A stretch of 17,687 bases of DNA from Candidatus Woesearchaeota archaeon (GCA_018302915.1 JAGVZB010000002.1:1-17687), one strand, 5' to 3'. Positions 2,777-17,195 are shown, numbered from the stretch's first letter. Numbers and translations are program-made. Notes: generated by a model not told the origin, from the letters alone.

Positions 2777-3325
2777 ATGGATTTGGTATATTGGATATTG
2801 ATTATTTTTGGGGTAATTGTTCTTTACATTATTGTGGCATATAACTCCTTGATTGTTCTGAGGACAAGGATAAACAATGCTTGGTCGCAGATTGATGTTC
2901 AGCTGAAAAGAAGATATGATTTGATTCCAAACCTGATAAAAACAGTTCAGGGCTATGTAAAGCATGAAAAAACTGTCCTTACTGAAGTAACAAAGGCAAG
3001 AGCCAATCTGATGTCTGGAAATATGAATCAAAAGGCAAAAGCTTCTGATCAGTTGACAAATGCATTAAAATCTTTGTTTGCTGTTGCAGAAAATTATCCT
3101 CAGTTGAAAGCCAATGAAAATTTCAAGATGCTGCAGGAGGAATTGTCAGGAACAGAATCCAAGATTGCATATTCAAGGCAGTTCTACAATGACAGTGTAA
3201 TGTCCTTTAACATCAAGATACAGAGGTTTCCCGCAAGTATAATTGCTAATGCCTTCAGGTTCACTAAGAGGGAATTCTTCAAGGCAGAAGGAAAAGAAAA
3301 GGAAAATATAAAAGTAGAATTTTAA
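2777..3325 (+). CDS. lemA: LemA family membrane protein
   Basis: The 182-aa ORF has an N-terminal TM helix. It then carries [33 protein letters not shown]...[29 protein letters not shown], the characteristic LemA signature. Confidence 0.85.
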
Positions 3326-3327
3326 AG

Positions 3328-4212
3328 ATGTATTCTCAAATATCAAAAAATAAGTGGAATTCATTATTTTTGTTTATACTATTTTTTATCCTAATAGGAG
3401 CAGTCGCATATGTTATTAATTTGTTGTTCTTTCAAGGATATTTGTTTATTATAGTTGCAGCAATAATTGCAATAATATTCTCTTTAATTAGTTATTATTC
3501 TGGAGACAAAATAGTTCTTTCAATGGTTAAAGCAAGAGAGGCAAACAAGAAAGATTATGCTCATTTGATCAATAGCGTTGAAGGTTTGTCAATAGCAGCA
3601 GGAATTCCTAGTCCAAAGGTTTATGTTATTCCAGGAATGCAAATCAATGCGTTTGCTTGTGGAGTTTCACCGAAGAAAGCATCAGTAGCTTTTACAGAAG
3701 GTTCATTGCAAAAATTAAACAGACAGGAATTGGAAGGAGTAATTGCACATGAACTTTCTCACATTAAAAATTATGATATAAGAGTGATGGTCCTTGCTTC
3801 TGTCTTGGTTGGAATAATAGTTTTTGCTAGTGAAATAATGCTGAGGAGTTTTATTTTTGGCGGTGTAAGGTCAAATGAGAATAAAGGGGGGAGTGCCCAG
3901 ATAATCCTGATTGCTGTTGGTGTTGTTTTGTTGATTCTTGCCCCGATAGTCGCACAGATAATTAAGTTTGCAATATCAAGGAAGCGTGAGTATCTTGCAG
4001 ATGCTTCTGGTGCTTTGTTGACGAGATATCCAAAAGGATTGGCAGATGCTTTGAGGAAAATAAAGGCAGACCACGAAGAATTAAGGACAGCTTCAAATGC
4101 AACAGCGCATATGTTTATTTCAAATCCTTTTAAGAAAAAACAATGGTTGGCGAGCATGTTTGCTAGTCATCCCGATATAAATGATAGAATTCAGAAACTA
4201 GATTCTATGTAA
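3328..4212 (+). CDS. htpX: HtpX-like M48 zinc metalloprotease (membrane)
   Basis: The 294-aa ORF has two N-terminal TM segments, HELSHIKNYD (HExxH), two further TM segments, REYLADASGA (third zinc-ligand Glu region) and a C-terminal SHPDINDRI. It starts 2 nt after the lemA stop, and lemA-htpX is a recurrent gene pair. Confidence 0.85.
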   Translation: MYSQISKNKWNSLFLFILFFILIGAVAYVINLLFFQGYLFIIVAAIIAIIFSLISYYSGDKIVLSMVKAREANKKDYAHLINSVEGLSIAAGIPSPKVYVIPGMQINAFACGVSPKKASVAFTEGSLQKLNRQELEGVIAHELSHIKNYDIRVMVLASVLVGIIVFASEIMLRSFIFGGVRSNENKGGSAQIILIAVGVVLLILAPIVAQIIKFAISRKREYLADASGALLTRYPKGLADALRKIKADHEELRTASNATAHMFISNPFKKKQWLASMFASHPDINDRIQKLDSM

Positions 4213-4272
4213 AAATTTCATGTAACTAAACTCTTTCATAAATTCATTTTGGATATATGTAATTCTTTTTTC
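4208..4272. repeat. Degenerate, non-coding duplicate of the rfcL 3' end; left direct repeat flanking cassette 1
   Basis: 4208-4244 is 37/37 identical to 5433-5469. The match continues to 4259/5485 with 2 mismatches and a 1-nt indel. After a 24-nt gap in this copy, 4260-4272 is 13/13 identical to 5510-5522. On the minus strand the indel breaks the rfcL reading frame. Confidence 0.85.
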
Positions 4273-4281
4273 AGAATATAA

Positions 4282-4773
4282 TTAATCACTTCTATTCCCT
4301 CTCAAGATTAGATTAATGTTCTTGAAAAAAGTTTCTGCATTTTCCAGACTTTCCTTTGCGGGAAGAAGATTTGCTTGGGGAAGTTTTTGATATGTAAATT
4401 CTCCTCTTTTTGATTTTTCTTTCTTGAAAATCCCAAGTAATTCCTCTGCCTTGATAAACATAGTCTTGTAAATATAAAGAAGTTCCACATCAATATGACC
4501 AGAATCTACAAACTTCTTAAACTCTTCATATGTCTTTTTGTGTTCTTCTGGAGGTTCAGTTACAATTCCATTCTTATATAAAAATGCCTTGGCAGAATAA
4601 AAGATGCAATAATAAGAGCTACTTATTACATTGCTGAAGAAAGTGGAATCATCTTTTAGTCCAAACTCTAATTTCAAATCAGATTCATTTGATAGCTTGA
4701 ATATTGCTTTTGCCAAGTCAAATTCATTCTTTGCCCTGTTTAGATAAAGTTGCTCTTTAAGGTCTGAATCCAT
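4282..4773 (-). CDS. HEPN-domain protein, partner of the upstream nucleotidyltransferase (cassette 1)
   Basis: The 163-aa all-helical ORF carries LNRAKNEFDLAKAIF, VISSSYYCIFYSAKAFLYKNGI, a conserved His (EEHKKTY) and KSKRGEFTYQ. It is collinear with the second copy at 16580-17164. It overlaps the NTase gene end by 17 nt. Confidence 0.6.
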   Translation of the reverse strand: MDSDLKEQLYLNRAKNEFDLAKAIFKLSNESDLKLEFGLKDDSTFFSNVISSSYYCIFYSAKAFLYKNGIVTEPPEEHKKTYEEFKKFVDSGHIDVELLYIYKTMFIKAEELLGIFKKEKSKRGEFTYQKLPQANLLPAKESLENAETFFKNINLILRGNRSD

Positions 4774-5374
4774 TTTTGTAAGCCTCTTTTATAAGATTGT
4801 AATAAATATCTGAATTATAGAATATTTTATGTTTTCTAAATATCTGCTTTCCAAGATTTTCTTCACTTCTTGTCAGCATCTCAATGAATTCATTAAACAA
4901 GATATAATGATCATCTACCTTTATTTTATAATTTAGCTTAATGTCATTTAAATAGGGTTTTATCTTTTTTTCATCTTCTTTATTGTTTATAAGAATAGAA
5001 ATGTCTATGTCTGAATCTTTTTTCTGCTTATTCTCAGCATAACTGCCAAAAACAATAAGGCAATATCCTTTTACAGGAATTTTATTTATTATATCAGAAA
5101 TAAGGTCCAGTCTTTCAAAATTTATGGATTCCTTAATTTCTAAAAAATCAAGAATTTTTAATGAAATGGGATTGGACAAGTTTAATGAATAAATATCTAA
5201 ATTGGATTTTCTATTTGAATTTAATATTTTATTTTTTACAAGATGTTTTAATGTATTAAATATCCATGTTTTTGTTTTTTTGTTTAAACTCTTCATTATC
5301 TCCATTCTGCTTAAATTGCTGAACGGATTTTTTCTCCAGACTTCCAAAACCCTTATTTTTTCATCAGTTCTCAT
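4757..5374 (-). CDS. Winged-helix (wHTH) plus minimal nucleotidyltransferase (Pol-beta/MNT fold) protein (cassette 1)
   Basis: The 205-aa ORF has an N-terminal ~70 aa HTH-like region (SRMEIMKSLNKKTKTWIFNTLKHLVKNKIL). The NTase signature follows: LIVFGSYAENKQKKDSDIDISILI (G-S ... D-x-D) with a downstream acidic VDDH. Confidence 0.75.
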   Translation of the reverse strand: MRTDEKIRVLEVWRKNPFSNLSRMEIMKSLNKKTKTWIFNTLKHLVKNKILNSNRKSNLDIYSLNLSNPISLKILDFLEIKESINFERLDLISDIINKIPVKGYCLIVFGSYAENKQKKDSDIDISILINNKEDEKKIKPYLNDIKLNYKIKVDDHYILFNEFIEMLTRSEENLGKQIFRKHKIFYNSDIYYNLIKEAYKNGFRP

Positions 5375-5388
5375 AAATGTTATAACTA

Positions 5389-5425
5389 TTACTTATTTAA
5401 ATACCTTTCGTTACTTATTTAAATA
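5389..5425 (-). promoter_or_regulatory. Tandem 15-nt direct repeat (ttacttatttaaata x2, 22-bp period) containing the TATA box of the cassette-1 operon; candidate promoter/operator
   Basis: The two copies at 5389-5403 and 5411-5425 are perfect. On the minus strand each reads tatttaaataagtaa. The proximal copy lies at about -15 to -29 relative to the NTase ATG (5374). Confidence 0.5.
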
Positions 5426-5428
5426 ATT

Positions 5429-6499
5429 TTAGTGTAAAAATTTCATGTAACTAAACTCTTTCATAAATTTATTTTTGGACATATGCAGCTCTTTTGATAA
5501 TTTTTCAGATAATTCTTTTTTCCTGTCTTCTTTCCTGTTATTTATCCAGATTTTTAGAATTCTTGAGTTTCTTTTGTAGCTGACAAACTTATTGTCCTCT
5601 TTATCCTTGGAAAAAGCCACGCCAAGATTCATTAGTATGTTCTCATAAACCAGAAATCTCCAGTATTGCCATCTTCTTATCCTTCCCCTGAAGACATCAG
5701 CCTTGCTCAGATAATCATAAGCATGTTTAACGTTGTTGTATTCATAAGGGATATTTTCTTCCAACCATAAAAATACTTCATCAAGGTCTTCATCAAGCAA
5801 TTCAATTGATTTTAATATTTCTTTCTGATTTTTTGTTTTGAATATATTTTTTAATGCATTAAGGATTGTTTCTTTTTTTTCCCTTGTGTCAATATCATCC
5901 TTGCTTATCATCAGCAGTTCAAGGTCATTGATGGCGCTTCTTACATCCCCTTTGGAATTAATGGCTATTTTTCTTAGATGTTCTTCATCAACATTCTTAT
6001 CTTCCCTGTAAATAATGCTCTTTAAAATCTTTAAAACATCAAGATAATTCAGCTTGTCAAACTGAATCAATTCACAGTTTTTTCTTAGCTCCTTGAACTT
6101 TGAATCCCAGATATCATTGCCTATAATAATCACAGAATGTCCTGTTTCTTTTAATATGTCTACAATTTCTGTTATTGCTCCTTTATCCTTGCTGTTTAGC
6201 CCGTCAATTTCGTCTATTAATATTATTTTACCTTTTGAGAATAAGCTTGCCTGTCTTGCAGATCCCCCAACTTTTTCATCAATTTGTTCCTTGTTCCTGT
6301 AATCGCTGGCATTTATCTCCAGAATTTCATAATCTAAATCCCTTGCTAGTGCATGAACAGAAGAACTTTTTCCAATGCCAGGAATTCCATAAATTAATGC
6401 TGCTTTTTTATCGTTGACAGATTTTTTTAATTTAGATATAGCATTATCTTGGCCTATAATTTCCTTTAAACTCTTTGGCTTGTATTTATTTAACAGCAT
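5429..6499 (-). CDS. rfcL: Replication factor C large subunit (clamp loader)
   Basis: The protein begins MLLNKYKPKSLKEIIGQ (the RFC box II-like start), then has Walker A YGIPGIGKSS, ILEINASDYRNK, Walker B IILIDEIDGL, VIIIGND and GDVRSAINDLE. The start is placed at the internal ATG at 6499, giving 356 aa. The ORF track's 6577 start would add 26 non-conserved residues. Confidence 0.85.
   Translation of the reverse strand: MLLNKYKPKSLKEIIGQDNAISKLKKSVNDKKAALIYGIPGIGKSSSVHALARDLDYEILEINASDYRNKEQIDEKVGGSARQASLFSKGKIILIDEIDGLNSKDKGAITEIVDILKETGHSVIIIGNDIWDSKFKELRKNCELIQFDKLNYLDVLKILKSIIYREDKNVDEEHLRKIAINSKGDVRSAINDLELLMISKDDIDTREKKETILNALKNIFKTKNQKEILKSIELLDEDLDEVFLWLEENIPYEYNNVKHAYDYLSKADVFRGRIRRWQYWRFLVYENILMNLGVAFSKDKEDNKFVSYKRNSRILKIWINNRKEDRKKELSEKLSKELHMSKNKFMKEFSYMKFLH
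5433..5522. repeat. Right direct repeat flanking cassette 1; this is the functional 3' end of rfcL
   Basis: This is the partner of 4208-4272. Here the sequence is in frame and encodes the RFC large-subunit C-terminus ...HMSKNKFMKEFSYMKFLH*. Confidence 0.85.
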
Positions 6500-7055
6500 T
6501 TTGTAAAAAATTAACAATTCCTTTTTCAAATTTTGGATAATATTGATTAACTCTATCCCATTCATATCCAAGTTCATCTATATCTCTTTCTTGCTGTAAT
6601 ACTTTCTTGAAATATTCTTTGCCATATAAATTCTCAGTAACCCTTCTTTGAATCAATAAGACAGGAAAATGAACTTTAAAGTCATAATCTTCATATCCAA
6701 ATTTCTTTCTTATTAGTTCAAGAACTTTTTTATTATCTTTTAACAAAACATGAATTAATTCATGAATCAAGATTCCAGTTATAACATCAGAATTCTTATT
6801 GTATTTTAAAGTGAAAGGAAAACTTATTGCATTGAAATCCATATCCTTAACAGTAAAACATCTTACTTTGTAACTAAACTTCAATCCAGAAATCTTTTCT
6901 ATTTCATTTTTTATTTTCTTTCCCTCTTTTTCCCAGAAAGATTGTAAAGAAGCAGTAAATCTTTCCATGTCAACATATTGTTTTCCAGAATATTTTTTCT
7001 TCTTCATTGAAGTAAATAGTTCATCATACACCGAGGAATAAACAAAGTCAATCAT
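6486..7055 (-). CDS. Hypothetical protein with HExxH motif (possible zincin-like metallopeptidase), embedded in the RFC operon
   Basis: The 189-aa ORF has ATGA overlap with the rfcS stop (7052-7055) and a 14-nt overlap with the rfcL start. The only recognisable motif is GILIHELIHVLL, followed by candidate ligands (E/H within ~15-30 aa). No family assignment is possible by eye. Confidence 0.5.
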   Translation of the reverse strand: MIDFVYSSVYDELFTSMKKKKYSGKQYVDMERFTASLQSFWEKEGKKIKNEIEKISGLKFSYKVRCFTVKDMDFNAISFPFTLKYNKNSDVITGILIHELIHVLLKDNKKVLELIRKKFGYEDYDFKVHFPVLLIQRRVTENLYGKEYFKKVLQQERDIDELGYEWDRVNQYYPKFEKGIVNFLQNAVK

Positions 7056-7993
7056 TTTAGGTAGAATCCTGCCAATAAAGCTTGTAATTGTATGAATTCA
7101 TCCGAGCCTTCAACCATCCTGAATTCTATTTCACCGCATTTCTCAATCAATTTTAACTTGTCTTTCTCATCAATTTCTAATTCAAGAACCTCTTTTTGTA
7201 TTTGTTTGATAATATCTAATCCGCTTAATCCATTTTTTAGCATTATATCCAATAACATATTTTTGGATTTTAAAAAATCACCTTTTATTGCACACTCTAT
7301 AATTTTTCTTATTTCTTTGGGATGCACACTAGCAACAACATCATAAATTAATTTGTCATCAATCTTGTTTGAGATGGAAGCACAGCTTTGTAATATGTTT
7401 AATAACCTCCTCAAATCCCCATTTGAATTTTCATATAATATTTCCTTGGCTTCTTTTGAAATCTTTAGTTCTTCTTGCTTGGCAATTTTGTCCATGTATT
7501 CAAAAACACCTTCTTTTTCTATTCCTCTGAACCTGAAAATTGTGCATCTTGATTGTATGGGGTCAATTATTTTAGAGGAATAGTTGCAGCTTAAAACAAA
7601 TCTTGTTACAGCAGCATAATTTTCCATAGTTCTTCTTAGTGCCTGCTGCGCTTCTTTTGTTAGTGAATCACACTCATCCAGATAAATAATTTTGAATGGA
7701 ACATCCCCGATTGATTTTGTTCTTGCAAAATCTTTTATTGTATTCCTTACTACATCAATCCCACGATCATCACTAGCATTTAACTCGAGAAAATTCTCTC
7801 TCCAAGAATTTCCATATAATTGTTTTGCTATCACTAAAGACAAACTAGTTTTTCCAGAACCTGCAGGACCTGTAAATAAAAGGTGAGGAATACTTTTTTG
7901 TTCAACCATAGCTTTGACCCTTCTTACAATTGCTTCTTGCCCTATTATATCCTCAAAATTCTTTGGGCGCCATTTCTCAATCCATATTTCCAT
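7052..7993 (-). CDS. rfcS: Replication factor C small subunit (clamp loader)
   Basis: The 313-aa ORF has WIEKWRPKNFEDIIGQ, Walker A GPAGSGKTS, LELNASDDRGID, Walker B IIYLDECDSLT, the SRC motif (PIQSRCTIFRF) and GDLRRLLNILQ. There is no intein. Confidence 0.93.
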   Translation of the reverse strand: MEIWIEKWRPKNFEDIIGQEAIVRRVKAMVEQKSIPHLLFTGPAGSGKTSLSLVIAKQLYGNSWRENFLELNASDDRGIDVVRNTIKDFARTKSIGDVPFKIIYLDECDSLTKEAQQALRRTMENYAAVTRFVLSCNYSSKIIDPIQSRCTIFRFRGIEKEGVFEYMDKIAKQEELKISKEAKEILYENSNGDLRRLLNILQSCASISNKIDDKLIYDVVASVHPKEIRKIIECAIKGDFLKSKNMLLDIMLKNGLSGLDIIKQIQKEVLELEIDEKDKLKLIEKCGEIEFRMVEGSDEFIQLQALLAGFYLK

Positions 7994-10946: not shown

Positions 10947-11516
10947 ATGAGTAAGAATTCATCAAAACCAGAAATAAAAATACAAAATATAGTTGTTTCT
11001 ACTTCTCTTGAACATGACATACCATTGATAAAGCTTGCAGAAACTTTGCCAAATACAGAATATAATCCTGAGCAGTTTCCGGGATTGGTTATGAGGATAA
11101 AAGATCCGAAAACATCGGCATTGATATTCAGCTCTGGAAAAGTGGTGTGTACAGGAGCGAAATCTTTAACTAAAGTGAAGGAATCATTACAGAAAATAAT
11201 CAAGAATCTTGCTAAGATAAAAATAAGAATAAAAGTTAAGCCGAAGATAAATGTCCAGAATATGGTGGCTTCAGGGGACATCAAGATGGACTTGAATTTA
11301 AACTTCCTTGCTTTAAAGCTGCCAAATACGGAATATGAGCCTGAGCAATTCCCGGGTTTGGTATTCAAGCTTCAAGGGACAAGGGCAACTTTTTTGCTTT
11401 TTAGCAATGGAAAGATAGTATGCACTGGTACAAGGTCGGAAGTTGCATTGAAAGAGTCTGTTGATAAGTTGGTCATTGTGTTGAAAAAAATAAAGAAAGA
11501 TGCAAAACATAAATGA
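10947..11516 (+). CDS. tbp: TATA-box-binding protein (two TBP repeats)
   Basis: The 189-aa ORF contains two direct TBP repeats. The first reads IQNIVVSTSLEHDIPL..LPNTEYNPEQFPGLVMRIKDPKTSALIFSSGKVVCTGAKS. The second reads VQNMVASGDIKMDLNL..LPNTEYEPEQFPGLVFKL...TFLLFSNGKIVCTGTRS. Confidence 0.95.
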   Translation: MSKNSSKPEIKIQNIVVSTSLEHDIPLIKLAETLPNTEYNPEQFPGLVMRIKDPKTSALIFSSGKVVCTGAKSLTKVKESLQKIIKNLAKIKIRIKVKPKINVQNMVASGDIKMDLNLNFLALKLPNTEYEPEQFPGLVFKLQGTRATFLLFSNGKIVCTGTRSEVALKESVDKLVIVLKKIKKDAKHK

Positions 11517-14500
11517 GCAGATAGAGAATTTTAAGGGCTTTATTGAGCAATATTATGAAAAAAAACTGCATGAGCTTGATTCAAAGGGAGTTCATTCCGT
11601 TTACATTGATTTCTTTGAGATAGCAGAGTATTCTCCTGAGCTGGCTGAGTTTATTTTGGAAAATCCGGAAGATGCTGTAAAATCTTTTGAACTGGCAATT
11701 TCTGAGTTTGAAATAAATTTGAAGCCAAGAATATTTAATTTGCCAAAATCACAGTTCCTTAATATAAGGGACATAAGATCTCAGCATCTTGGAAAATTTA
11801 TTTACATAGAGGGTATTGTAAGGCAGGCTTCAGATGTAAGGCCTCAGGTTACTTCTGCTAAATTTGAATGCCCCACATGCGGAAATACTCTTTCAATATT
11901 GCAGCTTGATACAAAATTCAAGGAGCCAAGCAGATGCTCTTGCGGCAATAAAACGAGGTTCAGGTTGTTGTCAAAGGATTTGATTGATGCACAAAGGCTA
12001 GTTATAGAAGAATCTCCTGAAAATCTTGAAGGGGGGGAGCAGTCAAAGAGGCTTCCGGTTTATTTGAAGGAGGATTTGGTTGAGCCTAAGATGGAGAAGA
12101 AAACAACTCCTGGTTCTAAGGTAAGGGTGAATGGTATAATAAAAGAGATTTCTATTTTACTAAGTGCAGGTGCTAAATCTATAAATTATGATTTAAGCAT
12201 GGATGCTAATTCTATAATACCAATTGAAGAAACATTTGAGGAAATAGAGATATCAAAAGAGGATGAAGAGAAAATAAAGGAGCTTTCCAGGGATCCTTTG
12301 GTTTATGAAAAATTAATAGGTTCTATTGCTCCGTCAATTTATGGTCATGAGAAAATAAAGGAGGCAATTATTCTTCAGTTAATGTCTGGTGTAAGAAAGG
12401 TAAAGGATGATGGCACAATAATAAGGGGGGATATGCACATTCTTTTGGTTGGTGATCCTGGAGCGGCTAAATCCTCATTATTGCAGTTTGTTTCAAAATC
12501 AGCTCCTAAGGCAAGGTTTGTTTCAGGTAAGGGAAGCAGCGGAGCTGGTTTGACCGCCAGTGTAATAAAAGATGAATTCATCAGGGGTTGGGCATTGGAA
12601 GCGGGAGCATTGGTTTTGGCAAATGGAGGATTAGCAGCAATAGATGAATTGGATAAGATGTCCCCTGAAGACAGAAGTGCAATCCATGAAGCGTTGGAGC
12701 AGCAGCAGGTTAGCATTGCAAAAGCAAATATACAGGCATGTTATTCTTCAGATACAGAAGTATTAACAAATTATGGATGGAAAAAATATTGGGAAATTAA
12801 AGATGAAAAATTAGCCCAATATAATCTTACCCAGAAAATTATTGAATTTTTACAACATGATGGATTGTTTGTGTATAACTATGTAGGTAAGATGTATCAT
12901 TTTAAGAATAAAAGAATAGATATATTCGTTACACCAAATCATAAAATGTTAACGAAAGAACTAAGGCAAAAAGAGTACAGAGCTATTGAAGCAGAAAAAA
13001 TAAGATATAATCGTATAAAATTTCTTAATTCAGGAAACTTTTTAGGTAAAGAAGAAAGATATTTTATTTTACCTCCTATAAAACACAAACAAAATAGAAT
13101 TCATATTAAATATGTACATCAACACAAACCTAAAAAGATTCCTATGAACTTATGGTTAGAATTCTTGGGTTACTATTTAACTGAAGGGGGGATACAAAGA
13201 AAGCCAACAATAGGAATTCCCCAAAAAGATAAAAAAAATATAATTAAAATAAAAAAATGTCTTTTTAAATTATCAAAATATGTTGGATTTACTTTAAGTG
13301 AGACAAAAGATAAGCAATATATTAGGTTTCAAATTACAAACACCCAATTATTTGAATTCTTGGAAAAAAATTGTGGCAAAAAATGTATTGAAAAAAAATA
13401 TCCATTAGATTTGTCTAATCTATCTAAAAAACAATTAAAAATTTTATATGATGCAATGATGCTCGGAGATGGTTCTTCAGATGGAAAAAGCTTTAGTTCT
13501 ACGTCTATTGAACTAATAAACTTATTTCAATCAATAGCCTTACTTATTGGTAAATCTACAAGCAAAAATATACAATATTTAGAAAAATCTAGAAGGAATA
13601 GGGTAACTTTGTATAGGGTAACTTTATCCAACAAAACAGAACCCTCTATAAAAAAGAATAAAATAAAAAATATATATTATGATGGAAAGGTATTTTGCTT
13701 TTCAACGAAAACTGGTTTTTTTGTTACAAGACGAAACGGAAAAGTGACTATACAAGGTAACACATTAAGAGCTCAGACAAGTGTTTTGGCGGCGGCAAAT
13801 CCAAAGCTTGGAAGATTTGATCCTTATTCTCCAATAGCTAGCCAGATAGATTTGCCTCCAACTTTAATTAACAGGTTTGATTTGATATTTCCTGTTAGGG
13901 ATATTCCAAATAGGGAAAAGGATGAGAAGATAGCATCTCATGTTCTTGAACTGCAGAAGAGATCTGGAAAAATAGAATCAGAAATAAGTACAAAATTATT
14001 GAGAAAATATATTGCATATGCAAAGCAGCATGTAAAACCTATTCTTACAGATGGCGCTGTTGATGAAATAAAAAAGTTTTATGTCAATCTAAGAAATAAG
14101 GGGCAGTCCTCTGAGGAGGAAATAAAGCCGATCCCAATAAGTGCAAGGCAGCTTGAAGCTTTAGTAAGGCTGTCAGAAGCATCAGCAAAAGTGAGGTTAT
14201 CCAAGGAAGTAAAAAGAAAGGATGCAAAGAGGGCAATTGATATATTGACGTATTGCCTGATGCAGGTAGGAATAGATCCAGAAACTGGAAAAATAGACAT
14301 AGACAGGATTTCAACAGGGATAACTGCAACCCAAAGATCAAGGATAGTTGTTATAAGAGAGATAATAAGGGAGCTTGAATCAAAGCATGGAAAGTCAATT
14401 CCTATGGAGGCAATATTCGAGGAAGCATCCAAGAAAGGTTATAATGAAGACCATGTGGAAGAGGCGATAGAAAAACTGAAAAGAGAGGCTGAAGTATACA

Positions 14501-14532
14501 ATCCAAAGCAGAATTTTGTTTCAAGGCTTTAG
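11500..14532 (+). CDS. mcm: MCM replicative helicase interrupted by one intein (669-aa extein plus 341-aa intein)
   Basis: The protein has an N-terminal C4 zinc finger (CPTCGN...CSCGN), Walker A GDPGAAKSS and Walker B AAIDELDKM. The extein junction reads SIAKANIQA|...|TLRAQTSVLAAANP (sensor 1), followed by the arginine-finger region SRFDLIF-like NRFDLIFPV, sensor 2 PISARQLEALVRLSEA and a C-terminal wH. The start overlaps the tbp end by 17 nt. Confidence 0.95.
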   Translation: MQNINEQIENFKGFIEQYYEKKLHELDSKGVHSVYIDFFEIAEYSPELAEFILENPEDAVKSFELAISEFEINLKPRIFNLPKSQFLNIRDIRSQHLGKFIYIEGIVRQASDVRPQVTSAKFECPTCGNTLSILQLDTKFKEPSRCSCGNKTRFRLLSKDLIDAQRLVIEESPENLEGGEQSKRLPVYLKEDLVEPKMEKKTTPGSKVRVNGIIKEISILLSAGAKSINYDLSMDANSIIPIEETFEEIEISKEDEEKIKELSRDPLVYEKLIGSIAPSIYGHEKIKEAIILQLMSGVRKVKDDGTIIRGDMHILLVGDPGAAKSSLLQFVSKSAPKARFVSGKGSSGAGLTASVIKDEFIRGWALEAGALVLANGGLAAIDELDKMSPEDRSAIHEALEQQQVSIAKANIQACYSSDTEVLTNYGWKKYWEIKDEKLAQYNLTQKIIEFLQHDGLFVYNYVGKMYHFKNKRIDIFVTPNHKMLTKELRQKEYRAIEAEKIRYNRIKFLNSGNFLGKEERYFILPPIKHKQNRIHIKYVHQHKPKKIPMNLWLEFLGYYLTEGGIQRKPTIGIPQKDKKNIIKIKKCLFKLSKYVGFTLSETKDKQYIRFQITNTQLFEFLEKNCGKKCIEKKYPLDLSNLSKKQLKILYDAMMLGDGSSDGKSFSSTSIELINLFQSIALLIGKSTSKNIQYLEKSRRNRVTLYRVTLSNKTEPSIKKNKIKNIYYDGKVFCFSTKTGFFVTRRNGKVTIQGNTLRAQTSVLAAANPKLGRFDPYSPIASQIDLPPTLINRFDLIFPVRDIPNREKDEKIASHVLELQKRSGKIESEISTKLLRKYIAYAKQHVKPILTDGAVDEIKKFYVNLRNKGQSSEEEIKPIPISARQLEALVRLSEASAKVRLSKEVKRKDAKRAIDILTYCLMQVGIDPETGKIDIDRISTGITATQRSRIVVIREIIRELESKHGKSIPMEAIFEEASKKGYNEDHVEEAIEKLKREAEVYNPKQNFVSRL
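12739..13761 (+). mobile_element. Intein with LAGLIDADG homing-endonuclease domain inside the MCM ATPase core
   Basis: Cys1 (tgt, 12739) opens block A, CYSSDTEVLT. Block B is VTPNHKML (T-x-x-H). The two LAGLIDADG motifs are LEFLGYYLTEGG and LYDAMMLGDGSS. The C-terminal FFVTRRNGKVTIQGN is followed by the +1 Thr (13762). Removing these 341 aa restores the canonical MCM sequence IAKA.I.A-TL.A..SVLAAANP. Confidence 0.9.
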
Positions 14533-15648: not shown

Positions 15649-15932
15649 TATTCGTGAAAGAGCATATTCATAACAATAGGAAATTATTGGCCATTTGTGA
15701 TGGTAATTTGATAGGAAAAATTTTTGAGGAAGGGGATAAAATCCTTAATGTTTCCAAGAATTTTTATCATGGAGAGCCTATGTTTGAGAAAGATATTTTA
15801 AAATTGATTGAAGACAATATTTTATTGAACATAGTTGGGGATGAATCCATAAAATTTGCATTGAAGAATGAATTAATAGACAAAAAAGGGATAATAAGGA
15901 TTAAGAACATACCACATGCTATGTTATTATAA
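15645..15932 (+). CDS. DUF424-family small protein (commonly found next to aIF2-beta in archaea)
   Basis: The start is set at the ATG in the ATGA overlap with the eif2b stop (15645-15648). The 95-aa protein reads MIFVKEHIHNNRKLLAICDGNLIGKIFEEGDKILNVSKNFYHGEP...NIVGDESIKFALKNELIDKKGIIRIKNIPHAMLL, which matches my recollection of the DUF424 pattern. The ORF-track start at 15549 lies inside eif2b. Confidence 0.65.
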   Translation: MIFVKEHIHNNRKLLAICDGNLIGKIFEEGDKILNVSKNFYHGEPMFEKDILKLIEDNILLNIVGDESIKFALKNELIDKKGIIRIKNIPHAMLL

Positions 15933-15949
15933 TATTATATTCAAAAGAT
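15924..15949. repeat. Left imperfect direct repeat flanking cassette 2 (DUF424 stop plus a decayed copy of the next gene's first 6 codons)
   Basis: ttattataatattatattcaaaagat matches 17170-17195 (ttattataatgctatactcaaatgat) at 22/26 positions. Read in frame, ATA TTA TAT TCA AAA GAT corresponds to ATG CTA TAC TCA AAT GAT. Confidence 0.55.
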
Positions 15950-15996: not shown

Positions 15997-16590
15997 ATGT
16001 TAACAAAAACTCAATTTAAAATAATGCAAATTTTTGTATCTAAGATAAATGAAAAATTTAGCATTAAAAGAGTATCAGAAAATCTAAAAAAACCTTACCC
16101 ATTAGTCCATAGATCTATTAAGGCATTAATTGATAATAAATTTATATCAAAGGACAGACAAAATTTTTTATCTTTAAATCACAAACAAAATCATTCAGAA
16201 CTTGCTTACATAGAATCTTTAAGAAAAAAAGAATTCCTTGAAAGCAATAAAACAATTACTTTGTTTATAAATGATGTTATGGAAAAAATTAATTTAGATT
16301 TATTTATTTTCTTAATTTTTGGTTCTCATATTAAAAAGCAAAAATCAAGAGATATAGATATTTTAGTTATTATTGAAGACAAAAAAAAAGTTAATATTAT
16401 AGAAAAAATCTTAAATAATATAGCATCTAATTTTACTGTCAAATTTGATGTTAATATTATCTCAGTTGAAAGTGCCTATGAAATGCTTGCTAAAAGGGAT
16501 AAAATCAACATTGTAAATGAAACTCTTGATAATCATCTTTTAATTTTTGGTGCTGAAAATTATTATAGGTTATTAAAAAATGCTAGATGA
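15997..16590 (+). CDS. Winged-helix (wHTH) plus minimal nucleotidyltransferase protein (cassette 2; diverged paralogue of 4757-5374)
   Basis: The 197-aa ORF has an N-terminal HTH-like region (FSIKRVSENLKKPYPLVHRSIKALIDNKFI). The NTase signature is FLIFGSHIKKQKSRDIDILVII (G-S ... D-x-D) with a downstream FDVN. It has the same length class and domain order as the cassette-1 protein. Confidence 0.75.
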   Translation: MLTKTQFKIMQIFVSKINEKFSIKRVSENLKKPYPLVHRSIKALIDNKFISKDRQNFLSLNHKQNHSELAYIESLRKKEFLESNKTITLFINDVMEKINLDLFIFLIFGSHIKKQKSRDIDILVIIEDKKKVNIIEKILNNIASNFTVKFDVNIISVESAYEMLAKRDKINIVNETLDNHLLIFGAENYYRLLKNAR

Positions 16591-17164
16591 AAAAAGGATT
16601 GCTGAAATAAAAAGAAGAGTAACTAATTTTATAAAAGAGGGTATAATCAAAAAAGAGAAGGAGAGCAAATTTGTAGATTTTTTTCTAAATAACGCAAAAA
16701 ACTCGCTCGATTCTGCTAAATTATTATTTGAAGTTTCAACTAAGAATAATCTTAAAAATTTAACAGGTTTTCCTAATTTTAATGGATTTTTATGGGTTAT
16801 AAATTCAAGTTATTATTCAATGTTTTATATGGTAAGGACATTGCTTGAAAATGAAGGAATCAGGATAAAAGCTGATTTATCAATTCATGCTGTTACTTTT
16901 GATGCATTAGTTCATTATTTTTATATCACAGGAAAATTACAAAAGAGATTAATAGAAGATTTTAATGAAGCGAAAGAGGAAGCATCAGAAATGCTTGGAA
17001 AGGAAAAAGCTAAAGAACTTATTGAAGATTATTTTTATGAAAAAAATAAAAGAGGCACTTTTACCTATGAAATGGGGGCAATTGCAATGCAAAATAAAGC
17101 CCAAACTTCGCTGGAAAGAGCAAAAAGATTTAATGAAGAAATAAGAAAAATAATTGAAATTTAA
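16580..17164 (+). CDS. HEPN-domain protein (cassette 2; diverged paralogue of 4282-4773)
   Basis: The 194-aa ORF has LNNAKNSLDSAKLLF, VINSSYYSMFYMVRTLLENEGI, a conserved His (LSIHAVTF) and KNKRGTFTYE. It overlaps the NTase gene by 11 nt. Confidence 0.6.
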   Translation: MLDEKRIAEIKRRVTNFIKEGIIKKEKESKFVDFFLNNAKNSLDSAKLLFEVSTKNNLKNLTGFPNFNGFLWVINSSYYSMFYMVRTLLENEGIRIKADLSIHAVTFDALVHYFYITGKLQKRLIEDFNEAKEEASEMLGKEKAKELIEDYFYEKNKRGTFTYEMGAIAMQNKAQTSLERAKRFNEEIRKIIEI

Positions 17165-17169
17165 AAAAT

Positions 17170-17195
17170 TTATTATAATGCTATACTCAAATGAT
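17170..17195. repeat. Right imperfect direct repeat flanking cassette 2 (relic of the DUF424 end tta tta taa fused to the ATG of the next gene)
   Basis: This is the partner of 15924-15949 (22/26). It contains a TAATG stop/start overlap (17176-17180), which would be the pre-insertion DUF424/NMD3-like junction. Confidence 0.55.

Follow-up and report, generated by a model that had tools for sequence, protein, structure and literature searches.

An NTase-HEPN gene cassette between the rfcL and htpX genes of a woesearchaeal genome: a probable case of insertion with long target duplication

It is poorly understood by what means small selfish gene pairs enter chromosomes without mobility genes of their own, and a locus of a Candidatus Woesearchaeota archaeon poses this question directly. 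We analysed a stretch of 17,687 nucleotides (nt) of its genome (GCA_018302915.1, JAGVZB010000002.1:1-17687; hereafter the window). In it, a unit of about 1.16 kb, which we designated cassette 1, lies between the convergent genes htpX (3328-4212, plus strand; M48 peptidase, 294 aa) and rfcL (5429-6499, minus strand; RFC large subunit, 356 aa from MLLNKYKPK). The unit holds one promoter, one gene for a nucleotidyltransferase (NTase) with a winged helix-turn-helix (wHTH) domain and one HEPN gene, and it is bracketed by two copies of the rfcL 3' end. We concluded that cassette 1 is probably an insertion with long target duplication made by the recipient's own recombination or repair, and we read it as neither self-transposition nor integration at an attachment (att) site.

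The two copies stand in direct orientation. Their core is identical over 37 of 37 nt (4208-4244 = 5433-5469); this 37-mer occurs at these two sites only in the window, and 200 shuffles gave an expectation of 0. Ungapped, the match extends to 42 of 43 positions (4208-4250 versus 5433-5475), and with one 1-nt gap and two substitutions it reaches 4259/5485, a score unmatched in any of 2000 shuffles of the flanks. Past a 24-nt gap in the right copy, a second block agrees at 13 of 13 positions (4260-4272 = 5510-5522). The duplication is therefore 52 nt long, 65 nt with the second block and about 89 nt with the 24 nt restored. Taken alone the 13-nt block is weak, as two or more matches with at most one mismatch turned up in 27 of 200 shuffles, and most sister contigs show 12/13 here.

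Sequence comparison identified the right copy (5433-5485, with the second block at 5510-5522) as the live rfcL 3' end, which codes for the C-terminus ...HMSKNKFMKEFSYMKFLH*. The left copy (4208-4259) is a displaced and no longer functional rfcL 3' terminus; its minus strand gives ...NEFMKEFSYMKFLHRI* past a 1-nt frame break, with the end ...FLHRI*, and it overlaps the htpX stop (TAA, 4210-4212). Its second block (4260-4272) would correspond to the rfcL codons KKEL after a 24-nt deletion; because it also resembles the AAGA(A)TTACAT that adjoins the htpX stop in three relatives (L036, L030 and L053), its origin as an rfcL block or as old htpX-HEPN spacer is ambiguous. A 7-nt direct repeat, TATGTAA, read from the sequence at 4206-4212 and 4256-4262, bounds a 50-nt unit and is a possible microhomology for deletion or insertion of the left copy. 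A first-pass annotation of the window, made from the sequence alone, had described the same repeat, with its 37/37 core, its two mismatches and one indel, its outlying 13/13 block, and the same division into an in-frame rfcL end on the right and a frame-broken copy at the htpX stop on the left; our analysis bore out each of these points.

The repeat structure was seen in all ten loci shown among the 19 contigs with an identical NTase, which were drawn from ENA and JGI assemblies made separately. All sister contigs but L014 (A>C at 4212) have an identical left copy. In L014 (3029-3982; window equivalent 4151-4281), an imported patch at the 3' end of htpX changed the stop from TAA to TAC, and htpX reads through the dead rfcL fragment to 317 aa, stopping against the HEPN stop. 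In the fetched loci the repeat is found at orthologous positions only, and it is absent from viral contigs; the dispersed intergenic repeat that the first-pass annotation had considered as another possibility was not what we found.

Loci for comparison were taken from a Woesearchaeota-type DPANN population in aquifer metagenomes, by a search for rfcL homologues (named RFC large subunit in their source records) and then for contigs encoding homologues. Seven states of the rfcL/htpX junction were distinguished, the window's own included. Four related lineages have an empty site. In two of them (L015/L033 and L051/L052), rfcL and htpX overlap by 9 nt, rfcL ending in ...FLH* with its TGA inside the ...SM* codons of htpX; in the other two (L047 and L049/L050) the overlap is 15 nt and rfcL ends in ...FLHSI*. 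The repeat sequence is single-copy at these sites, and both window copies align to the lone rfcL-end/htpX-stop sequence of L015 and L047. Since the empty sites have the gene overlap and the single-copy sequence, cassette 1 is an insertion with a duplicated target. The first-pass annotation had foreseen empty sites at which the two genes converge directly, and had left room for relatives that lack the cassette and still carry both copies, which were not seen. Its predicted ancestral end, ...MKFLHRI*, was nearly right, being of the 15-nt overlap type, although the relatives read ...FLHSI* or ...FLH*. Among the empty sites, none belonged to a close relative of the window lineage.

Other relatives carry the same cassette at this site. 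In L054, a 19-nt vestige of the left copy, TTATATAAAATTTTTACAT, adjoins htpX and agrees with that locus's own rfcL end at 17 of 19 positions. In L036, L048, L037 and L053 (NTase 87-96% identical) there is no recognisable left copy, and the HEPN and htpX stops lie 6-12 nt apart. The long left copy is restricted to one near-clonal clade, and the cassette without a long copy is spread over four lineages. L030 has a 3.3-kb insert at the junction, with radical-SAM/B12, 53-aa and AsnC/Lrp genes.

The same scar was found at other insertions. Four independent events share the geometry: cassette 1, a second cassette in the window (cassette 2), a cassette in L031/L032 and a gene for an FAD-oxidoreductase in L049. 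The lengths of the duplications and the positions of the junctions vary by event, with 18, 26, 52-89 and at least 179 nt. Within the rfcL/htpX site, the left-copy junction precedes the rfcL end by about 21 nt in L054, by 52 to 89 nt in the window and by at least 179 nt in L031, and it is absent in L036, L048 and L053.

Cassette 2 (15997-17164, plus strand; weak Pfam matches) consists of a wHTH-NTase gene (15997-16590) and a HEPN gene (16580-17164), whose products are 27% and 33% identical, respectively, to those of cassette 1. Its flanks form a direct repeat with 22 of 26 positions matching (15924-15949 versus 17170-17195), a score reached in 13 of 2000 flank shuffles. The left copy (15924-15949) contains the live end of a DUF424 gene (TAA, 15930-15932) and a dead NMD3 start in which ATG has become ATA, and the right copy (17170-17195) contains the dead DUF424 end and the live NMD3-like start (ATG, 17178). 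At the corresponding empty sites (L062-L070) the sequence is single-copy, and the DUF424 and NMD3 genes overlap by 4 nt.

In L031/L032, an unrelated two-gene cassette occupies the rfcL/htpX site (L031:5362-6098) and encodes an 88-aa protein without a family match and a 112-aa protein with a weak HTH match. Its left copy consists of two blocks, 6045-6098 matching 5309-5362 (43/54, 80%) and 6009-6030 matching 5184-5205 (21/22), and spans at least 179 nt with an 89-nt internal deletion. The last codons and the stop of the HTH gene lie within this decayed, rfcL-derived copy. In L049, a single gene for a 347-aa FAD-oxidoreductase lies between rfcL and orf189, a conserved open reading frame (ORF) of 189 aa. 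It is flanked by a perfect 18-nt repeat, AAAATGTTATTGAATAAA (L049:3953-3970 and 4998-5015; 4 of 2000 shuffles), which contains the 14-nt overlap of the orf189 stop and the rfcL start. The gene call for the FAD protein begins with rfcL's own MLLNK.

The duplication is independent of cargo and is sited at gene overlaps; it is therefore not specific to modules of a minimal nucleotidyltransferase (MNT) and a HEPN protein. The first-pass annotation had suggested a mobility mode special to MNT/HEPN modules, which our data do not support, as the same scar flanks unrelated cargo that includes the lone FAD-oxidoreductase gene. Because the scar recurs around unrelated cargo, we regard the duplication as a property of DNA uptake at overlaps in gene-dense genomes. 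At distant cassettes, no significant flanking duplication was found in L055 (between gatC and gatA), in L051 (between LemA and HerA) or in the immediate flanks of L059; either the scar is not universal or it has decayed there. L051, whose rfcL/htpX site is empty, carries a different MNT/HEPN pair (3855-4818; 178 and 141 aa) without a detected flanking repeat between LemA and HerA, which are neighbours in the window. In L059, a segment of about 400 nt that includes the start of a MazE-like gene is present in two diverged copies (3366-3765 and 5531-6004; 74-97% identical, about 2.17 kb apart) around a distant cassette homologue, and this pair may be another, older long duplication.

A view of how incoming and native sequence are arranged came from L031 (filled) and L047 (empty), whose flanks are nearly identical up to the breakpoint, so that the two can be separated. 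Their rfcL genes differ at no position in the first 780 nt and at 6 in the first 960 nt, and then at 24 in the last 120 nt (Fisher p = 5e-19). The L031 left copy differs from the rfcL end of L047 at 4 of 57 positions, and three of these changes are G to A. This pattern indicated that the live rfcL end of L031 is foreign and that the htpX-side copy is native and decaying, the very arrangement of a replacement 3' end and a displaced original that the first-pass annotation had put forward. The left-copy block upstream of the crossover matches the host at 21 of 22 positions, and an all-host left copy, as expected from homologous recombination at one end and an illegitimate joint upstream, appears to be favoured over a Campbell-type circle with a donor arm (p about 0.05).

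The locus is mosaic beyond this pair. In L007, L012 and L014, htpX contains imported patches of single-nucleotide polymorphisms (SNPs): dense clusters at window positions 3768-3841, 3913-4110 and 4151-4212 stand out among otherwise near-identical strains and seem to reflect short stretches imported often by recombination; the patch in L014 stops at 4212. From about 5792 to 7055, L048 matches the window at 100%; towards the cassette the identity falls to 72-93%, and there L048 is L036-like (95%). The cassette body (about 4302-5380) is 93-98% identical to that of L053/L037, while the rfcL and htpX flanks are about 77% identical; the HEPN tail of the window, unlike the body, is of the L036/L054 type. 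These mosaics indicated that homologous recombination carries whole cassettes or pieces of them from one lineage to another, which blurs the history of the cassette. Sliding identity identified no donor for the window's rfcL end, the region being too mosaic.

Annotation and Pfam agreed with the first-pass description of a single promoter-NTase-HEPN unit between the copies. The NTase gene (4757-5374, minus strand; 205 aa) encodes a wHTH domain and a minimal nucleotidyltransferase with a GS-x10-DID motif, that is, an intact GS-x(9-13)-DxD motif (GSYAENKQKKDSDID in translation). The protein scored 35.5 bits with Pfam Polbeta (cut-off 26.9) and 35.4 bits with NTP_transf_2 (cut-off 21), and 35.5 bits with NCBIfam MntA, which is below the equivalog cut-off of 60. 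The HEPN-like gene (4282-4773, minus strand; 163 aa) scored 18.9 bits with Pfam HEPN, below the cut-off of 22; its tail reads ...GATTAATTATATTCTG, its product had no NCBIfam match, and no Rx4-6H motif was recognised by eye (KRGEFTYQ stands at the expected place). The HEPN-like proteins of both cassettes (4282-4773 and 16580-17164) are below the Pfam cut-off. Because KRGxFTY stands in both at the place of the expected Rx4-6H RNase motif, both may lack HEPN toxin activity. By gene content, the cassette 1 pair is putatively toxin-antitoxin-like.

Upstream of the NTase gene, a predicted promoter/operator (5375-5428, minus strand) contains TTACTTATTTAAATA twice (5389-5403 and 5411-5425), each unit forming a half-palindrome around a TATA-like box. 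It is kept in every cassette-bearing relative, and distant homologues elsewhere (L055 and L059) are preceded by a related form. A scan for sigma-70 promoters and terminators was uninformative, the host being archaeal. Homologous promoter, NTase and HEPN elements recur at other loci of other DPANN genomes (between gatC and gatA in L055, and inside an island), which marks the cassette as a discrete unit; many homologues at other loci are 57-68% identical.

The first-pass annotation had reported no integrase, transposase or terminal inverted repeats in the unit, and our searches gave the same result. Pfam and NCBIfam found only the NTase and HEPN and no transposase in the unit or nearby; comparison of the cassette 1 ends found no terminal inverted repeats; no integrase or recombinase was found in the unit, the window or the fetched flanks of longer contigs (up to 10 kb on each side of the query gene; 46-kb contig); and the site had no Rfam match and no tRNA. 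A transposon, insertion sequence or miniature inverted-repeat transposable element was rejected, given the lack of terminal inverted repeats, a duplication of at least 52 nt and an identical NTase at one locus in all 19 contigs. A viral or plasmid carrier was likewise set aside, since viral contigs searched with the NTase protein, the promoter motif and the 37-mer gave no match. Foreign origin by composition was also dropped. The window is AT-rich and densely packed with genes, with a guanine-cytosine (GC) content of 32.0%; cassette 1 has 27.0% (NTase 24.6%, HEPN 31.9%), htpX 34.6% and rfcL 31.6%, while the conserved orf189 has 26.0%. The unit is indeed lower in GC than htpX, as the first-pass annotation had stated, but its contrast of about 20-23% against about 42% was overstated.

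From these observations a sequence of events can be proposed. The 1.16-kb unit entered where the convergent rfcL and htpX genes briefly overlap at their tails, and would have duplicated at least the last 52 nt of rfcL and probably about 89 nt. In this way each gene would have retained an intact terminus on its own side of the insert, and the htpX-side copy would be a dead remnant that has since acquired a 24-nt deletion, a 1-nt deletion and two substitutions. The incoming DNA may have been anchored by homology to rfcL and closed by an illegitimate joint upstream of the anchor end; alternatively, a replicative template switch may have re-copied the target. Only insertions that duplicate the overlap would survive, because these alone leave both overlapping neighbours intact. 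Later, the cassette or its body would have been exchanged among lineages by homologous recombination.

The age of the long left copy is a separate matter. An ancestral copy of about 89 nt could have lost 24 nt between two KEL codon repeats; L036/L048 and L037/L053 could then have lost the copy by deletion between TTACAT repeats and L054 between TTATAT repeats. This course accounts for the 13/13 block, and the L031 left copy has a similar two-block form. That the long copy is ancestral, or else came with an independent re-insertion, seems to us likely. Several observations speak against our reading of the locus. Four lineages (L036, L048, L037/L053 and L054) have the cassette at this site without a long left copy, and for this reason the long duplication may postdate the arrival of the cassette. 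The window's left copy is exactly the 50-nt unit bounded by TATGTAA, and the spacer next to it resembles the htpX-proximal spacer of those relatives, which also fits a later templated insertion. All three small differences between the copies fall within the last 15 of 52 nt (p about 0.02); an att-like core and arm, or a gene-conversion tract, would also give such clustering. A later recombination patch, instead of the insertion itself, could have brought in the foreign rfcL end of L031, and the steps of the mechanism are ones that we infer. As to the polarity of the long-copy and no-long-copy states, either direction needs only microhomology events in the HEPN-tail and htpX-end sequences that we compared (window, L036, L048, L037, L053, L054 and L030).

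The same observations bear on the other explanations. The cassette might have come first, with a remnant of 20-30 nt or less as in L054 and L036, and 50 nt of the rfcL end might have been copied beside the htpX stop later, in the window lineage only, by two template switches or gene-conversion-like repair at TGTAA and TATG; the duplication would then be unrelated to the arrival of the cassette. The 7-nt TATGTAA at the bounds of the 50-nt unit would be expected from such an event, the inner ATGTAA and spacer align with the htpX end and spacer of L036, L048, L030 and L053 (AAGA(A)TTACAT), and the perfect 37-nt core suggests a recent event. The confinement of the long copy to one near-clonal clade, while four lineages have the cassette without it, and the HEPN tail GATTRATTATAT common to the window, L036 and L054 point the same way. 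However, a 13/13 block lying exactly 24 nt past the 52-nt match would then be a coincidence, the L031 left copy also has two blocks and an internal deletion, and one TTACAT/TTATAT deletion plus small indels could turn a window-like ancestor into each of the states seen in L036/L048, L037/L053 and L054. The number of differences between the copies (about 3 of 52) also agrees with how long ago the window and L053 cassettes parted. We consider such a secondary origin of the left copy unlikely, if still deserving of attention. Either way, insertions at this site bring a duplicated rfcL end, as the L054 vestige and L031 indicate.

The first-pass annotation had seen the geometry of an integrative element, possibly a mini-cassette mobilised in trans. 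In such a model a site-specific recombinase encoded elsewhere would move the unit, attP would mimic the rfcL 3' end, the 37 nt would be the crossover core and the diverged part an arm of the element. An identical core with the differences clustered at one end would be explained, as would a cassette body that differs between lineages far less than its flanks do, the foreign origin of the live rfcL end of L031, and an rfcL that ends after insertion in exactly ...FLH*, like the empty sites; the left copies of the window and L031 also have in common an ATG>ATA change in the HMS codons. Yet the unit, the window and the fetched flanks of the 46-kb contig contain no integrase, the viral contigs contain no copy, the attL would be missing from most cassette-bearing lineages, and duplications at this one site differ in junction and length (about 21, 52-89 and at least 179 nt). 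The scar is found again at the dissimilar target of cassette 2 and around the lone FAD-oxidoreductase gene, and the 21/22 match of the L031 block to the host upstream of the crossover would be unexpected (p about 0.05) for an arm that is 80% identical. We therefore judged att-type integration quite improbable. Equally doubtful, in our estimate, is a dedicated pathway in these DPANN archaea, whether the host's own or supplied in trans by an element, that places promoter-bearing cassettes at gene junctions with long, variable target duplications; if real, it would be the machinery behind insertion with long target duplication, and this population offers several before-and-after pairs for it. Chance similarity or an assembly artefact might be suspected, as the sequence is AT-rich and of low complexity and one JGI contig (L003) ends inside the repeat, but the shuffles did not produce the 37-mer match, many independent assemblies have an identical structure, and the repeat is the single-copy sequence of orthologous empty sites, so that we give this explanation almost no weight. 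As a minor variant of the dedicated-pathway reading, the perfect 37-nt copy in the 3' untranslated region of htpX may have been kept to preserve antisense pairing with the rfcL mRNA once the two genes had been driven apart.

The genes around cassette 1 are as follows. LemA (2777-3325, plus strand) is the upstream neighbour of htpX, which matched Pfam Peptidase_M48 (7e-30), and rfcL matched the Pfam AAA and RFC lid domains. The orf189 gene (6486-7055, minus strand) sits between rfcS and rfcL, each of which it overlaps in every relative; its product has an HExxH motif (IHELIH) and no Pfam family, and NCBIfam gave a Cas6 match at chance level (E = 0.007). The rfcS gene (7052-7993, minus strand) is intact in the window and is split by an insertion of about 1.8 kb in several relatives (L030, L032, L038 and L053). 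The L053 product is 898 aa long and matches Intein_splicing and LAGLIDADG_3, indicating that rfcS has an intein presence/absence polymorphism. The MCM of the window (11500-14532, 1010 aa) is about 340 aa longer than the 669-aa MCM of L063 and L064, and the extra segment looks like an intein or homing-endonuclease insert.

The value of this locus lies in its set of matched filled and empty sites. The window and its relatives provide at least four independent events in one archaeal population, each with a matching empty site, and three kinds of cargo. They also call for caution, because a duplicated gene end beside a cassette is not always an att site.

Among known systems, integrative elements at the 3' ends of tRNA or protein genes resemble cassette 1 in having direct repeats of the target 3' end, an intact target and a displaced copy at the far end. 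Unlike them, cassette 1 is a tiny insert with variable junctions, with no integrase and no fixed att core; neither a recombinase in or near the element nor a constant att core with the same boundaries was found, and the same scar occurs at unrelated targets and around unrelated cargo.

The cassette 1 genes resemble type VII HEPN/MNT (HepT/MntA) systems in the order of a nucleotidyltransferase gene and then a HEPN gene, in their housekeeping context in DPANN and in their unusual conservation. They differ from them in the N-terminal wHTH of the NTase, in MntA and HEPN scores below the cut-offs and in the lack of an Rx4-6H motif by eye. MNT/HEPN genes of DPANN are unusually conserved in a housekeeping context (Makarova et al., 2019; PMC6393860), which fits the many 57-68% identical homologues at other loci. 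For mycoplasma toxin-antitoxin pairs, flanking direct repeats have been mentioned as recombination scars (PMC8562856).

In homology-facilitated illegitimate recombination of naturally transformable bacteria, one end of the incoming DNA is homologous and the other is joined illegitimately (PMC3240628). With such a process, a live rfcL end of foreign origin beside a wholly native displaced copy, as in L031, would be accounted for. It is known from bacterial transformation and conjugation experiments, in which recipient DNA is usually reported as deleted and not duplicated; here, by contrast, there is a duplication, and the hosts are archaea.

The closest counterpart is insertion with long target duplication, described for bacterial restriction-modification units (Nobusato et al., 2000, Gene 259:99; Furuta, Abe & Kobayashi, 2010, NAR; PMC2853133). 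These units have variable duplications of tens to about 400 bp, no mobility genes and a single-copy empty site in a sister genome; the class was reported in bacteria only, no archaeal case passed the screen (PMC2853133), and the phenomenon has been without a mechanism since its description in 2000. We found no earlier literature report of it for archaea or for toxin-antitoxin-like cargo. All four features that define the class are present in cassette 1: the unit is absent from otherwise collinear relatives (L015/L033, L047, L049/L050 and L051/L052); both repeat copies align to a sequence present once at the empty site (L015 and L047); the duplication exceeds about 30 bp and is variable (52 nt or more in the window, at least 179 nt in L031); and there is no transposase, integrase or terminal inverted repeat, with a repeat that is not dispersed in the window, the fetched loci or the viral contigs. 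The duplications of cassette 2 (26 nt) and L049 (18 nt) are below the 30-bp screen of that class. As in the bacterial cases, the repeats often take in the 3' end of a neighbouring gene, and the cargo includes what would be selfish "addiction" modules. The differences are that the cargo here consists of MNT/HEPN-type pairs, another two-gene pair and a lone metabolic gene, that the targets are gene-gene overlaps and that the hosts are DPANN archaea. The idea put forward for the bacterial units, that DNA cleavage by the cargo itself drives insertion, cannot hold for the FAD-oxidoreductase case. Our comparison suggests that long target duplication is independent of cargo and extends to archaea, and to both toxin-antitoxin-like and ordinary genes; it further suggests that, in genomes with overlapping genes, duplication of the overlap is what makes insertion survivable.

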